This document shows positions 1,296-37,368 of a stretch of DNA of 64,000 nucleotides, one piece after another; within the stretch, counting starts at the first letter, position 1; each line of letters opens with the position of its first letter. The stretch spans positions 101,618,001 to 101,682,000 of the forward strand of contig OX638149.1 of the NCBI GenBank assembly GCA_951804945.1, read 5' to 3'. Position numbers and translations under genes: made by a program. The DNA is from Podarcis cretensis (taxonomy: Eukaryota). Below the pieces are notes generated by a model, which worked only from the letters and a program-made list of their open reading frames with translations, ran no database searches and was not told the DNA's origin.

Positions 1296-3171
1296 GTTGC
1301 ACACACAACAATATCCAAGTGGTGTGATACTCCAGGGGTGCCAGTGCTTACTCAGAGTTTGGTTTCCATGGAATGAAAGTCAATGGGAACAGTGTTGCCT
1401 TTAAAATATATAGTTTTATTTACACATGTATACAACCTTAGCTTAGGATAGAAGGGCTCAAAGCATTAATAGTTCAACATTTGTTGCTCTCCCATCAGGT
1501 TTCTAGAGAGGTCCCCAAAGCCATAGCTTGGGATTTAGCACATAGAGCAAGTCAAGCCTGTGTCCCTTTTCAGTTTCAGCCCAAGCTAAGGCTAGCTCAA
1601 GATCTATTGTTCTCCTACCCCTAGGATGACACTGAAACCAGCCAGGTGGTTTCTCTATGGCCAACTCTTTAGACATGTGAATAGGGTGCTTAATAGACCC
1701 AGCTACAGCCATGCTCAATTCTTTGTTAAATTAAACTGGCAGTTCCTTCTACGGTAGACTACAGCCTTACAGATTCAAAACCAGTGGCTTTAGCTGGGAT
1801 CCACCATCACGATGACTGGAGCTGATGGAGTTGAACACTTTATGAAGGGTCAGGTTTTTTCCAACCTTGATGCAGATGGAAAGCCAGGAGAGAAATTAAC
1901 TCGAATAAATGCAGAAAGAAAATTAAGGTGCATCCACCTGCATGCTGTATTTTATGAACCAGCAGCAAACCAATGGACACAGAAGGCAAGATTTCTATTG
2001 CTAACCCTACAGATGAAAGCTTAAAATGTTACTTTCCCCTTGTATCCCTATATATATTATGCAGGATTTCCCAAATGAATGCTTCTTATAATCTGGTAAA
2101 TTTACCCTTTCAAATTAACTGCATGAAAGCCACTTGAGAATAGCTTCAGGGGTTGTCAGTAAGAGATCCCTGAAAATCAGCTTCATCTGCAGGAACCAAT
2201 TTCAGGAGATAACAGTGCAATCATATGCATGTTTACTTGCATATACAACTGTATGCAATGGAATTTATTCCTAGATAAATGATTTAAGATTGTCGGCTAA
2301 ATCTAACTCTACTATTATTAGCTACACAAGCTAAAATTTCTTTGCACATTTCCTCCTTTCTTCTCCCTTCCTAACTTTGTGTACAATCTACAAATTTTAA
2401 TCAGATTCTTTATCATGTTGTCTCACTAATAATCTTGGTTATCACTTTTACAGATCATTTTCACACTAGATTTTGTCCTTGTGTGGCAATGAAAGATAAT
2501 AGTGAATCATTTTCTTTTCTCTGTGTGTGTTTGTGTGTATAAAACAGGTAAGAAGATTGATATTTTAGGCATCGTAATTCATTTTGGAAGTTGTTTCAGC
2601 ATTCATTATGATACATATCTTCAGAGTGAAAGTATAGAGGACACATTAAGCACTGAAATGTCTTCATGCTTGTTAGTCAATACCTCTGATTAAACTGGTC
2701 TGTCAGAATCTGAACTTTTAAATATGAGGAAATTGCTATATGGATGCACTCCAATTAGCTCCCTGTGACCCTGGAGATGTTTTTTTGCCTCCAACTCTTA
2801 CTAGCCCCAGTCATTACAGCAAATGGTCAGGCAAGATGGGAGTTGTAATCCAACAATATTTGGAGACCCGTGAGTTTGCCATCCTGGTTTTTTGTGAAGC
2901 ACAGAGGGGGGCACATACTGTCTTGAGAAGACTAAATCAAGATTAGATCTAGCTCCTCAAAGCAGTTGTTTGCTTTATGTAGTTTCCTGTATTTACTTTC
3001 ACTTAAAATAAATAAAATAAATACATTTACATATACATTTATACATAAATTCAAAGTGGCTTACAGGTTACTAAAACTGACTAAAACAACTAACAAAAAT
3101 AATAAAAAACAAAATTATTAAAAAACAAAACAGTAGTCTTATAGGAGTGGGGAGGGTTTGGTTTGTATATA

Positions 3172-30724: not shown

Positions 30725-32451
30725 CACTTCCGGGTTGGCGCCATCACCGAATGGCGGACTCCCTCCGAGCTCCGGAGGGAGCCTGCTCGGCAGGGGTTGG
30801 GTTCTACCGCGTCGGTGTCACGGGGACCCTCAAAAACCATGGGCGCTGAAACCCATGGGCATGGTGACTCGGCGGGCACCGTTTGCGCCCCCCGACCCGC
30901 GAAGGAGCCTTTTTAAAGGCTACGGAGCGGGAGCCAGGGGGGGTGTGGTGCTATGAGTCCTCCACTTCCCCTGCCGAGCGAAGCCGCATGCCATTTGGCG
31001 GAGAGCGCTGACTTCTTCCATTGAAAATTCGGATTAAAAAGAATAACCTGTGAGCAATTGGAAACTGGACTTAAAAAGGGAAAAAAATTTAAATTCGGAG
31101 CGAGCGGGGGAGGTGCAAAGAGGAAGTCCATCTCCCCCCTGTCGTAGAGGATTTAAAGCAAAGGATTTAACAACTAAGATCGAGTGCTACCTTGGTTTGA
31201 TAAAGTTACTAATTTCACGATGGAAAATTATAAGACTGGGCTGGAGGAGAAAAGTAGAACGTGAGCTAAAATGCAACCCCCCCCCCCCCGGGAACCGGGA
31301 GCGATCTGCGAGAGCGCCGGGAGAGGAGAAACAGAGGCTTTGACAGCTGTCAAAGGAGCTGTCAAAGCTGAAGAATAAAAAGAGAATTTTGTTATGAGGA
31401 CTTTGCCGGTTACATTTGTTACAAATTAGATATAAATTGTTTAAAACAAGGAATAACAAGTTACTTTGACTGTTGGGTGCGATCTGGAAGGAAACTGAGT
31501 TACTATAATCCCTCTAGAGGGGCTGTGGGACACTACAAGTATTGTTGGCATGGAATTTGAATTGGACTTTTTATCTCCTGGGAAACTGCAGAAATGGAAC
31601 ACTATTTTGTCTACAGAGGTCTCTACACTAAAGGAGACAATAGATTTATCTATTGAAGAATGGAAGGGACTTGACGTAAAGTTTTGTTCCTGAATAACAA
31701 AGCCTCTGTAGGGGATTTAGAAGCTTTTGGAATTGGAACATTTTTGCAGGAGAGCAGGAAAAGAAACTAGAGGAAAGTGAGGAGAGAGAATAATAAGAAC
31801 AACATGAACAACAAGAATTGGATAAAGTTGGAAGTGGGAACATTTGGGACATCCAGATTTGAAAGGTTTAAAGAAACAAAATTGGAGTTTTACTCTTAAA
31901 TACAGAGATCTGGATGGAAAAAATGGACCTTTTTGAGATAGAGTTTTTCTGAGATTGGACGCTCGAAACTAAAGATGATTAAAAAGATGGCAAAGACTAT
32001 TAAAAAGACGGCAAAGTGGACTTGTGAAGGATTTTGGCCTAGATGTGGGATCTCCAGGATGACAACAGGCATTGATGGACATTGGGGAACGCAACCGGGA
32101 AAGGGGGGAGGGAAATTTGGAATCCAAAGGGTGTTAAATTATATTTTATTCTATTTTCTATTTTCTTTTATTTTAATCTGTTCTGCATATTAAAGAGGGG
32201 AACTCGTGGAAGGGAGCGGGGTCGATTTTAGGGGATGGAAAAACATTTTTAACATTGGGTTAATTATAATAAGTTTAAAATTTGGGGTAAGAACTTGTTG
32301 AATCTATTTGAAGGAATTGGAATACAAGAGGGGGTGGGGTGGGGAAGTCCTGGAAAGATGCCAATGGAAATAAGGTTATAAAATGGATGTTTTATTTCTT
32401 TTCTTTTTTCTGTTATATTTGAAAATGTTCAATAAATATTATTAAAAAAAA
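30725..32451 (+). mobile_element. Full-length non-autonomous L1-derived retroelement (1.7 kb, no intact ORF)
   Basis: 16-bp TSD TAAAGATTTTTAATTA (30709-30724 and 32452-32467); AATAAA plus A-tail; CpG-rich 5' UTR and G-rich 3' UTR homologous to the 32660-35805 element. Confidence 0.85.
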
Positions 32452-33605
32452 TAAAGATTTTTAATTAAGATTTATTTTTAATTGTGCTGTTTTAATGCAG
32501 ATCTGTTTGCCACCCTGGACTTCTTTAGGGAAGCATATTAAATAAATAAACTAATTCATCTTCATGTAGTAATAGGCAATATATTGCATACTCTTGCCCA
32601 CTGAGTTCAGTGTTCCAGATAGTGTCAGCACCATGAAGCAACAATTTGATATTCTTAAGGGGACTTCCGGGTTAGCACCATCGGTAATGGCGGAATCCTT
32701 CTGACTAGGAGGGATTTGCCTTGAGGAAATAGGGTCTGTCCGCTACGGCGAAAGCAGAGACCCCTCCAAAATCACAGGCGGGCGAAGCCTGTGAGCATGG
32801 GATTCGGCGGGCACCTTTTGCGCCCCCCCAGTTCGTGGGGAAACCCAGCCACGGGTTCCGGAGCGAAGCGGGGTGAGTGGCGCGGTGCTGTGAATCGACT
32901 GCTTCTTCCTTGGAGCGAAGCCGCACAGCCGTTACTGGAGAGCGCTGACTTCTTCCTGGGACAATTCAATTTAAAAAGCAACTACCCATGAGTAGGACAA
33001 ATTAGAGGGGGGGGGGAAGGAGGAAAAAGGCTTAATTTGGTACCGAAGCGGGGAGGTGTAAACAGGAAGTCCACCTTCCGCTTTTGTAAATAGATCAAAG
33101 CAAAGAGAATACAAGCTAAATTCTTCAAAAACTGATTGGAAAGGACTAAATTCCTAACACAAAAAGTATCGACCCCCCCCTGGAAGTAGGGGAAGGAGGG
33201 GGGAAGCTTTGGACTATATATACCTGCAAGAGAGAGGGGAGGAAGCTAAAATCCACCCCTCAAAACCTGGGAATGGGCTGCCAATAGACAATAAGACTGC
33301 CGTACTTTGAATTGTGTATTGACTGTGAATAGACCACTCGCTGACAGCTAGCAGCAACAGAGATACATTGTTTTCAGCTGTCCTCTTCTGTTCTTAAAAA
33401 GGAGGAAAAGCAACTGGAAAGTATCTGTACATTGAAACTGTTTATTTTTCGCTTGAGTTGGGGTTTAAAAGGTATTATTTTGAACTATTGCAACTGTTTC
33501 CCCCTAGAGGAAGTTTCTGAAATTGATACTAGGGGAATTTTTCCACTGGCAAGATAAACTGTGTTGCTGTGGGACTGACCTTGACTCTTTTATTGTTCAA
33601 GTGTT

Positions 33606-34810
33606 ATGGCAGATGGGAAAGAAAAAGTAGATTCGTCACTCCCAAACAAAACAACAAGGTCTAGGAAGACTTGGCAGCGAACGCCATCAGCCTCTGGTCT
33701 CTCTGCCCCATCTGCAACTGTACTAACACAATCTAAGGCTAGAGGAATGTCATCAGAAGAAGCTCTAGCAATTGCATTAGCCAAGATTAATGAATCTTTG
33801 GAGCAACTTAACAAGAGGGTTGAGGAGACAAAGGTGAAAGTGGATTCCACAAATGCGAAGGTAGATGCTGCAACTACTAAAATCGACTTAAATACAGAAA
33901 GCTTAAATAGCTTGGGACAACAGGTGAATACTAATACAGAATCTATTGAGAAATTGTTGCAGGAATCTACTTTGATTCGACAGACCGCAGATGAAGCTAA
34001 GGAAAAAGTTGCTGCTGTGGAAGTTAAGATAACACAATTGGAAACAGAGAGAGTCCCAGATCTACAGAGGCAACTTGAGGATCATAAGTTGATGCTTTCT
34101 ATGATAGAACTTAAGGAAAAGCAAACGAATTTGAGGATTAGAGCTGTACCTGAATTGGAGAAGGACAGTTTGAAAGACTTTTTGATGCAGGAATTTGCAG
34201 AGTTTTGGAAGTTGGATTTGGGACAAGAAGAATTTAAAATCGTGAGGGCCTTCAGACTTGGAAGAGGAGGGAAGAAGAATAAAATAAGGGTTTGTCTGAT
34301 TACTCTTCGATCTAAAGAAGAGAGAGATAAAATTTTGGGTTTGCATTATCAGAATACTTTGACAATTCTGCAGTCAAGAGCAGAAATATTTAAAGATATC
34401 CCGAAACATCTTTTGGACCTTAGGTCCAATTTTGGAGATTTGGTTGCCCTGCTGAGAAGGAATAAAATCATCTTCAGGTGGGAATTTCCCCAAGGCCTAT
34501 CCTTTTCGTTGTTGTGTATACTGTGTATATACGGACAATGACAATAAATTTATCTAATCTTTAGCTTTAAAGGAAGAAAGATAAAAATAAGATCAGTAGA
34601 GGAGAAAGAAAGTTTTTGAAAAATCACGGAGAAGATCTGCAGAAAGAACTTGGAAAAGAGCCAGGAGTATTGGACAGAAGATCACCAAAAAGAGGAATAC
34701 TGGACATAGCAGGACTATCTTTCGGGTTGGACTGTCCAGAGAAAGGGATACCAGCACCACCGAGAGAACAAGAACAAGCACTGGGTGCTGTTGGAGGAGA
34801 AGCAGAGTAA
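33606..34810 (+). pseudogene. L1 ORF1p (coiled coil + RRM + CTD), disrupted
   Basis: Heptad coiled coil, NLRIRAVPE RRM start, AFRLG, IFKDIP and FRWEFPQGLSF motifs. Interrupted by a net 57-bp insertion (34506-34562) and a 1-bp deletion near 34610. Reconstructs to about 382 aa ending in TAA at 34810. Confidence 0.88.
34506..34562 (+). mobile_element. Extremely truncated LINE 3' tail (Rex1/Babar-like) inserted in ORF1
   Basis: tcgttgttgtgtatactgtgtatatacggacaatgacaataaatttatctaatc flanked by CTTT/CTTT; removing it restores GLSF-SFKGRKIKIRS. Confidence 0.65.
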
Positions 34811-34817
34811 CTACACC

Positions 34818-35453
34818 ATGGCACTGCAAGTATTAAGCTGGAATGTGAATGGACTCAATTCCCCGGAAAAGAGATGGAGGGTTTTTCATTTATTAAAAAA
34901 AGAACAATTGGATTTGATTTGTCTACAAGAAACACATGTGATAAGGTTTCACAGGAAGGTATTGAGCAATAAAAGATTGGGACATGAATTTATTTCATCA
35001 GACAAAGTTAAGAAAAGAGGAGTAGTACTTTATGCAAAGGAGAGCCTATCCCCGAAATTTTTATTTAAAGATGATCAAGGAAGATTTGTTGCAATTGAAA
35101 TTCAATCACAAGGAGAGAAATTTCTGATAGTAGGCATCTATGCACCAAACGAGGGAAAATCGGAATTTTTCAAGAAGTTACATGAAACTCTGATGGACTA
35201 TTTGGATTATAATATGATTTTGATGGGAGACATGAATGGAGTGGTGTCTACAAATATGGACAAGGCACAGAGACAGGTAGTTACCAAAGATGGCATACCC
35301 ACCTGGGTAGAATGGCAGATGAAGGTGATGGACTACATGGAACTGGCGGAAATGACTGGCAGAATCCGAGACCAGGGAGAAGAGTCGGTGGAAGAAGATT
35401 GGAAAAAAATTAAAGTTTATCTACAGAAACATTGTAAAATTAGGGAATGTTAG
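34818..35453 (+). CDS. Shortened L1 ORF2: partial APE endonuclease fused in frame to ORF2 C-terminus (211 aa)
   Basis: ATG 7 nt after the ORF1 stop; motifs SWNVNG, LQETH, IYAPN and GDMN; then a jump at about 35294 to an L1 ORF2 C-terminal-like segment (PTWVEWQMK...EDWKK). No RT, and no RID/SDH motifs. Confidence 0.8.
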   Translation: MALQVLSWNVNGLNSPEKRWRVFHLLKKEQLDLICLQETHVIRFHRKVLSNKRLGHEFISSDKVKKRGVVLYAKESLSPKFLFKDDQGRFVAIEIQSQGEKFLIVGIYAPNEGKSEFFKKLHETLMDYLDYNMILMGDMNGVVSTNMDKAQRQVVTKDGIPTWVEWQMKVMDYMELAEMTGRIRDQGEESVEEDWKKIKVYLQKHCKIREC

Positions 35454-37368
35454 AAGGATGTTGGAATGAAGCTATGTGGTTTTAGCAGAAATGTTATAAA
35501 GGATTAAGTAAAAATGGATTGGTAATTAGTGAAAGAGGAGAATGTAAAATTATAGTATATCAAGATAAATTTTTAGGATAAAAACAAAGATGGAAAGGAT
35601 TTGCTGAAATATCTAATTGAACTAGAATACAAAAAAGGGAGGTGTGAGGAGGTCAAGGAAATAAGCAAAGGAAAGAAAGTTATGTAAAGGTTGGATTTGT
35701 TTGGGTTTTTTTGGTATTTTTTGTGTGCTTTGTTTGCTTAACTTTTTCTATTTTTCTTTCTGTAACCTTCAAACTTTAATAAAATCTATTATAAAAAAAG
35801 AAAAGAATTTGATATTCTTAAGAATATATCACATTTTGACAATTTTTTCCACATTAAAGCAAAGAGCCGAGAAATATAGATGGGTCGAGTGTTTAAGGAG
35901 ACTCTTGAAATTCAGTGTCTTCTCTCTCTGAGGCAAGTGAACCCTAGTTTAAGTTTGGAAGCGCCCCACTCAGGCTTGTCCAGTGAATTGGGATTCACAC
36001 CTGTGAAGCTGTCATGTGCACCCAAGGATCCTCCAGGCTTGCTAGCCCCAAATTAATGACGGCTCAACATGAGGAATTGGCTGAGAAGAGCTGTCATTTG
36101 CAAGTAGGGAATCATGAGCATGTCAGTTCCATTCAGTTCTGTTTCAGCTCCATTGCCTGTCTCATCCTCATAACTTATAACCAATCATCCATGTGGCCAG
36201 CAGGGCATGCACATGCTTTATAATTTCCTATTGCTTCATATTAATGCTCCCAGTTTAATGCAAATGGTATAGACAGTGAGCAACATGTGCTAAAATATGC
36301 TAGCATAACACAGTGGAATAACATTAAGAGAGTATTTTATATTGAGAAATGGGGGATTCCACACACACACATTGCCCACAGTTCTATGTATATTTGAACA
36401 AGTGTTGTATATTGTTTATACAGTGATTTAATCAAAACACACTTAGATTCTGCTGGGAAAGAATAATTTAGAATAAAGTCAACTGTCAAGGGATGGAAAT
36501 AGAAACTGCACAGTTTTACAAGCACAAACACTCACTTTATTGAAAGCAATCCATCTCTTTCATGTACTCATATTCCTAGCAGTTAAAAGATTTTTCAGTT
36601 AATCATAACGTAGAGTGTATTCAGCTGAATTTATGACAGATATTAAGAACATCTGCCCCCATATTAGAGTGAAATTTCACTGTGAAGCATCAAGACTCTA
36701 AAATGTATTCAGATGAAATGTTGCTGTGTTTTAAAACATGAAACCCAAGAATGTGTCAAGATCGTTTATGGGAAATGTTGTAAATGCCAGTGTTTTATTA
36801 TAAGGAACATACAAGCTTTCAGAAAGATATGGTAGCTGCCAGATGGCCAGAATAAGCCTACAGTTACTATTTAGCTTCTCATTCTAAGAATTATACATTG
36901 CTTTCTACAGCTATAGCATCTCTCCTTACCCTCCAATGCCTTAAACAAGCACGTCTGGAATATTTACTCAGCAAATAGTAGATCCTTCCCAAGTCATCAT
37001 ATCTCCTTTGCCTGCAAACTGCACATTAATTCCAAATACTGTTTCTTTTTTTTGTTCCAACCTTTATACACTGCATTACTTCTGTGCCTATTTAGAACTT
37101 ATGGAGATACAGTTGTAGCAAGGCTTAGTAACCAGGACAGTTGTAACCAGGACTTAGTCAAGGTATTGGTTTCCAGGGAAAAGGCTCAGTCCTTCAACAT
37201 GCAAAGTAATAAATATTTTTAAAGCCCCTTGAACAGATGAACTGTGCTTCTCTCTCACTACCAGCTGAAGATCAAAGATGGCACAGAATGCAACATTAAG
37301 GTGCAAACCTTGTGCAGTTGGGTTGGTGAGAAACCAGTGAAGGTTTAGCAGAGCAATCACAGCATTGC

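Follow-up and report, generated by a model that had tools for sequence, protein, structure and literature searches.

A one-off, internally deleted L1 insertion and a separate HAL1-like family in the Podarcis cretensis genome

This study concerns an L1 retrotransposon within a 64,000-nucleotide stretch of the Podarcis cretensis genome (assembly GCA_951804945.1, contig OX638149.1, positions 101,618,001 to 101,682,000 of the forward strand), the whole of which we refer to as the window. The copy stems from one insertion event, contains a deletion junction that is unique in the genome, lacks the reverse transcriptase (RT) and has a broken first open reading frame (ORF1). We interpret it as a single, non-propagating L1 insertion without ~3.1 kb of ORF2 – a loss that probably came about when RT stalled and jumped during insertion.

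One insertion event without a reverse transcriptase

The element (32660–35805 of the window) has exact ends and lies between two 17-bp copies of a target-site duplication (TSD) that are identical throughout. Contigs of organisms B, C and F (runs X3, X5 and X12) contain the pre-insertion site, in which 32642 is joined to 35806 with a single TSD copy, and both insertion junctions, at the left and right flanks, are present in run X1 from organism A. The identical TSDs, the empty sites in these three relatives and the two junctions in run X1 together argue for a single recent insertion. The ends proposed in a preliminary description made from the sequence alone, with a complete 5′ end, 17-bp TSD and A-tail, hold. 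Recombination between two neighboring L1s is excluded by the common TSD and the clean empty site. Anatomy rather than a tree identifies the element as a member of the L1 clade: it has a 5′ untranslated region (UTR), ORF1, ORF2 with an N-terminal APE endonuclease (EN), an A-tail and a TSD.

ORF2 (34818–35453) is an open frame of 211 amino acids (aa) in which the first 159 EN residues are followed by the final 52, much as the preliminary description had read it. Residues 1–159 share 95% identity with the beginning of a paralogous 1,206-aa ORF2 bearing EN and RVT_1. The in-frame junction is at 35295/35296. A Pfam profile search detected no RT domain in the mini-ORF2 and restricted the Exo_endo_phos match to profile positions 1–156 of 225. 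The downstream RID and SDH motifs, present in paralogue L052, are absent as well, so that EN is cut before its last catalytic motifs. The full ORF2 of an autonomous L1, with RT and a complete EN, is thus missing, as had been anticipated for both domains.

For comparison with paralogues, ~10-kb stretches (n = 80) were taken around the best EN and ORF1 matches. Paralogues among the first 40 stretches that have both sides and no large insertion contain ~3,000–3,200 nt between the positions corresponding to 35293 and 35294. Alignment to paralogues, much as the preliminary description had proposed for the intact parent, puts the loss at 3,099–3,102 nt relative to L027, L028, L050 and L052 (3,102 nt in L028, L050 and L052), or ~1,034 codons, including all of RT. 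The breakpoint at 35295/35296 has 0 bp of exact microhomology, and an imperfect repeat lies 2–3 nt from either breakpoint. Splicing on either strand was rejected as the source of the junction: no splice signals (GT/GC..AG) bound the deleted stretch, which starts with GA and ends with TT, and nearby candidate sites, assessed by eye, fail to recreate the junction.

ORF1 had been named as a component of the element, its damage having been overlooked. It ends at 311 aa, compared with 364–386 aa in four intact paralogues. A private insertion of 57 bp (~34502–34558) that is absent from all 12 aligned paralogues brings in an in-frame stop, and near 34609 each of the same 12 paralogues has one base more than the element. 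The stop in the inserted sequence and the 1-nt deletion deprive the copy of the protein that a HAL1 (half-L1) element needs. The insert itself is the 3′ tip of an unrelated long interspersed element (LINE), which we take to be Rex1/Babar-like, and would have entered ORF1 after the L1 insertion. Among its other matches listed, 38 of 39 are 100% identical over 58–59 nt and the remaining one is 98% identical. All nine LINE copies inspected (L063–L071) are 5′-truncated with AATCT units at the end, and L069 carries an RVT_1 frame just upstream. The LINE family with the (AATCT)n tail is very young and, given this 3′-end identity, may still be active.

The L1 copy is also young, at ~1.3–2% from its sister copies. 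Its 3′ part (35296–35690) has 97.5–98.7% identity to them, and fragment L022 shares 98.9% identity with its EN part. Both ends come from one subfamily, with L091 being 96.5% identical at the 5′ end and 97.7% at the 3′ end; a cross-subfamily chimera is unneeded, since L091 resembles both. Coordinates of all features are collected in Table 1.

Table 1. Features of the L1 element and its target site (window coordinates).
Feature	Position	Strand	Remarks
Left TSD, 17 bp	32643..32659	+	Identical to right copy; one copy at empty site in X3, X5, X12
L1 5′ UTR, complete 5′ end	32660..33605	+	Aligned with first bases of full-length paralogues; first 340 nt 96.5% identical to sister L091
ORF1, broken	33606..34810	+	Open to 34541 only (311 aa); natural stop 34808–34810; intact paralogues 364–386 aa
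Nested 57-bp insertion with in-frame stop 34539–34541	34502..34558	+	3′ end of young unrelated LINE; ~4-bp duplication
1-nt deletion (frameshift), C-terminal part of ORF1	34609	+	Relative to 12/12 aligned paralogues
ORF2 5′ part, 159 codons	34818..35295	+	N-terminal two thirds of APE endonuclease, through GDMN
Deletion junction, in frame, ~3,100 nt missing	35295..35296	+	0 bp exact microhomology; unique in genome
Last 52 ORF2 codons and stop	35296..35453	+	C-terminal part of the 211-aa frame
3′ UTR, AATAAA signal, short A-rich tail	35454..35805	+	35296–35690 is 97.5–98.7% identical to young sister copies
Right TSD, 17 bp	35806..35822	+	Identical to left copy

An old L1 5′ UTR fragment (66% identity) is located at 30821–31138 of the window, 1.5 kb upstream of the element.

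The junction has not spread

We searched the whole assembly (1.5 Gb, 51 contigs) for other copies of the junction, as the preliminary description had suggested. Searched with at most two mismatches, a 27-nt junction pattern had one match – the locus itself – and its control had none, whereas the same type of pattern search on a different junction, used as a positive control, returned 2,020 matches. With a 261-nt junction-spanning query, all 39 non-self matches (best 40 of 4,250 candidates) begin at or after the junction, on the 3′ side only. With an EN query, all 39 non-self matches listed stop at or before 35298, a point at which the retrieved copies continue into full-length EN. The 5′ half has no near sibling: the best other ORF1 match that spans all 501 nt has 91% identity.

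The single match and the non-self matches that begin or end at the junction exclude, for this assembly, a propagating family with this junction. The preliminary description had offered such a family, with the mini-ORF2 retained, as one reading to be given up if the junction proved unique to this locus, as it did. Its other proposal was a one-off deletion by microhomology; the one-off part holds, and the junction has no exact microhomology. One junction common to many copies, each with its own TSD, is what marks a multi-copy HAL1 family, and this locus shows nothing of the kind. We consider the copy very probably one-off and dead.

Outside the assembly, in contigs of organism A (three samples) and organism B (one sample), no junction-bridging piece is among the 32 listed, with 1,900 more lying beyond the listing; such contigs drop rare variants of high-copy repeats, a limit that applies equally to a full-length orthologous allele.

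Timing and cause of the deletion

Of 69 L1 5′ ends examined, 25 are long-family members with both a TSD and a tail and were retained; copies of the short family described below, ends without a TSD in the stretch and tailless matches were left out. The whole RT is absent from five of the 25 (the window element, L041, L091, L098 and L106), with five different junctions and 3′ remnants of ~510–690 nt, and four further copies have smaller deletions elsewhere. When the window element is excluded, the 3′ breakpoints of four of eight deletions lie no more than 200 nt from its own, which a uniform null would give with P = 0.006 (the 200-nt range was chosen after seeing the data). The median length of sister 3′ ends (L143–L171) is 491 nt; 12 of the 29 measure 400–550 nt, with a query floor near 200 nt. 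The 3′ remnant of the window element, 510 nt from junction to TSD, is at the mode of these truncation lengths.

The position of deletion 3′ breakpoints near the usual 5′-truncation length suggests an RT jump during insertion. In such a scheme, reverse transcription would stall ~510 nt from the 3′ end of the RNA and RT would then jump to a point within the EN region instead of joining the flank. Copying would resume further up the RNA and be completed to its 5′ end, all within target-primed reverse transcription (TPRT), and the resulting copy would be inert.

Further one-off copies without any RT, with a distinct junction in each, are L041:3272, L091:1723, L098:3849, L106 (minus strand) 3747 and L094 (minus strand) 2382, and four of them have TSDs. 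L041 has kept an intact 371-aa ORF1 despite its loss of RT. In the young subfamily (L143–L171), 28 of the 29 sampled sister 3′ ends are 5′-truncated at ≤1.4 kb, the exception being the deleted L091, and no intact full-length member is among the top matches.

Several points weigh against loss during insertion. Just one of the 29 sister 3′ ends is 550–750 nt long, and it is L091 itself, making the match between truncation lengths and remnants a loose one; four other deletions end away from the breakpoint cluster; and the breakpoint test combines n = 8 with a post hoc range and 10-kb stretches that favor short copies. The timing is moreover one that we infer, a full-length orthologous allele having been neither found nor excluded, and lizard LINEs are described in PMC3787681 as losing sequence by large deletions after insertion. 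That erosion counts in favor of the principal alternative, in which the L1 inserted at full length and end-joining repair of a break subsequently removed 3.1 kb of it as a genomic deletion. The ~0–4 bp of microhomology seen by eye at junctions is equally compatible with end joining, the imperfect repeat lies close to both breakpoints, and many copies have deletions elsewhere. Yet later deletion does not predict breakpoints that cluster near the usual truncation length, and a copy this close to its sisters leaves little time for it; we judge it rather unlikely. If the copy is one-off and dead, deletion at insertion is the timing we favor. An error of assembly at the junction would be in keeping with the fact that a read or contig spanning it was seen nowhere outside the assembly, but the breakpoints have no collapsible repeat, at least four more TSD-bounded copies carry comparable deletions at junctions of their own, and run X1 contains both flank junctions, making an artefact highly improbable.

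The open ORF2 remnant

The preliminary description had raised the possibility that the mini-ORF2 is retained for a function; nothing in our analysis points to selection on it. Its private changes number four, three of them non-synonymous and one synonymous, against a neutral non-synonymous fraction of 0.69–0.75; this ratio is compatible with neutrality, with little power at four changes. Deletion length is a multiple of three in four of 12 independent deletions, the window element included (a hand-picked subset of those seen). An in-frame join that also lacks a stop would occur with a probability of 0.15–0.27. With four of 12 deletions in frame and private changes at three to one, the open frame requires no selection, and the in-frame join would be a product of chance. 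On the other side, deletion frames were measured against natural copies that possibly have indels of their own, and a count on four changes cannot exclude weak selection.

Two further explanations assign a role to this frame. One is a propagating non-autonomous family that retains ORF1 and the open mini-ORF2, for which one could cite the open frame, the complete promoter region and 3′ end, and the capacity of this genome to support such families, as the junction with 2,020 matches attests. It is refuted for this assembly by the single copy, the broken ORF1 and the absence of signs of selection, and we give it next to no weight. In the other, the copy is immobile but its truncated EN/C-terminal fusion is made as a protein, either dominant-negative or domesticated by the host. 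A 211-aa open frame with its ATG in native context would allow this, but the insertion is recent (empty in three related organisms), three of the four private changes are non-synonymous, and about two thirds of the EN fold remain. Normally ORF2 is translated after ORF1 terminates beside the ORF2 start, and here the ORF1 stop falls ~280 nt too early. A functional fusion is accordingly very hard to credit.

A separate HAL1-like family

The same genome contains a short family of ~2.0–2.2 kb, made up of an L1 5′ UTR and a shortened ORF1 joined to the terminal ~560 nt of L1. Its ORF1 lacks ~49 aa at the start and ~40 aa in the center, and stops exactly at the common junction – the one with 2,020 pattern matches genome-wide – whose 3′ breakpoint is ~30 nt from that of the window element. 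Copies are nested inside L1s in L026, L050, L051, L073, L088 and L111, with further samples in L112–L141; those in L026, L051 and L088 have their own 17–20-bp TSDs and a length of 2.0–2.2 kb, and four nested copies are 72–77% identical where aligned end to end. The window element was rejected as a member, since its junction differs and it has kept part of EN.

Six of 30 short-family copies (the first 30 matches) have an open frame of 206–245 aa from the methionine to the junction. By a simple counting method, the ratio of non-synonymous to synonymous substitution rates (dN/dS) for this frame is 0.28–0.62 in 14 of 15 pairs and 1.81 in one close pair; among four L1 ORF1s the same method gives 0.16–0.21. 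Bao and Jurka are said to have described faster ORF1 evolution in HAL1 in 2010. The family is multi-copy and has a common junction, its own TSDs, a constrained ORF1-derived frame and no ORF2, and is thus a real HAL1-like family. Its L1 3′ end, A-tail and TSDs suggest that it is mobilised in trans by L1 ORF2p. Literature searches found no reptile HAL1, including in PMC5381506 and PMC5203782; Repbase and Dfam, outside this search, may already hold the family.

Three other TSD-bounded, A-tailed elements of 1.8–1.9 kb (L045:1799–3590, L047:147–2033 and L073:5344–7171) are L1-like in the first ~450 nt only, and may represent either another short family or a subfamily that is distantly related. On the minus strand of L107 (581–2045), the first 1,464 nt of an L1 are flanked by a 19-bp duplication and lack both the 3′ end and a tail, making this a tailless, 3′-truncated L1. 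Near-identical L1 fragments with common deletions near contig ends (L054–L060 and L074–L077) are probably subtelomeric segmental duplications rather than products of retrotransposition.

Relation to known elements and significance

Many non-autonomous LINEs with 5′ and 3′ parts only arose by internal deletion, according to PMC5786205. The bipartite LINEs of this recognized class resemble the window element in having autonomous 5′ and 3′ ends joined, RT missing, and TSD and tail intact; the window element differs in being single, never having been amplified and keeping two thirds of EN. HAL1 is presented in PMC5753468 as an ORF1-only L1 derivative with several origins in mammals. The window element shares with it an L1 5′ end, an ORF1 region, an L1 3′ end and the absence of RT. 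The HAL1-like label of the preliminary description does not survive: the window element has a broken ORF1, 211 codons of ORF2 and one copy, and so fails HAL1 membership on three features – intact ORF1p, a multi-copy junction and no ORF2. HAL1 fits the separate family with 2,020 matches much better.

Rearrangements during L1 insertion are documented: internal deletions that accompany twin priming, as well as template switching (bioRxiv 10.1101/2024.08.27.596794; PMC11702581), and template jumping (PMC2912911). Like the loss proposed here, these TPRT rearrangements occur inside one TSD-bounded insertion, with RT template switching as the proposed cause, but the internal deletions reported there are at 5′ inversions and short, with a median of 14.5 bp, whereas the window element has lost 3.1 kb with no inversion. 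Squamate L1 decay, as described in PMC3787681, likewise involves fragmented L1s in a reptile genome with mostly short copies; it takes place after insertion, whereas breakpoint clustering around the window element hints at loss during insertion.

The locus is an unremarkable dead L1 copy with an internal deletion. It matters little in itself and has its value as a pointer to a genome that holds at least five failed one-off deletions, their 3′ breakpoints clustered, alongside one family that succeeded. Repeated origin through internal deletion is on record for HAL1 elements. The presence of both outcomes here permits a direct test of deletion timing and of what favors amplification, with an intact ORF1 ending at the junction (the successful family) set against a broken one followed by an ORF2 stub (the window element). 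We tentatively entertain, without leaning toward it, a broader possibility: that this reptile L1 lineage routinely makes RT-less 5′ plus 3′ fusions at insertion, through an RT jump after ~500–700 nt, and that the window copy was stillborn while a sibling event with a 3′ breakpoint ~30 nt away gave rise to a HAL1-type family, now at least 2,020 copies strong, whose ORF1 is shortened yet still constrained. If true, this would be a reptile HAL1, and one genome would show the birth of HAL1 families.

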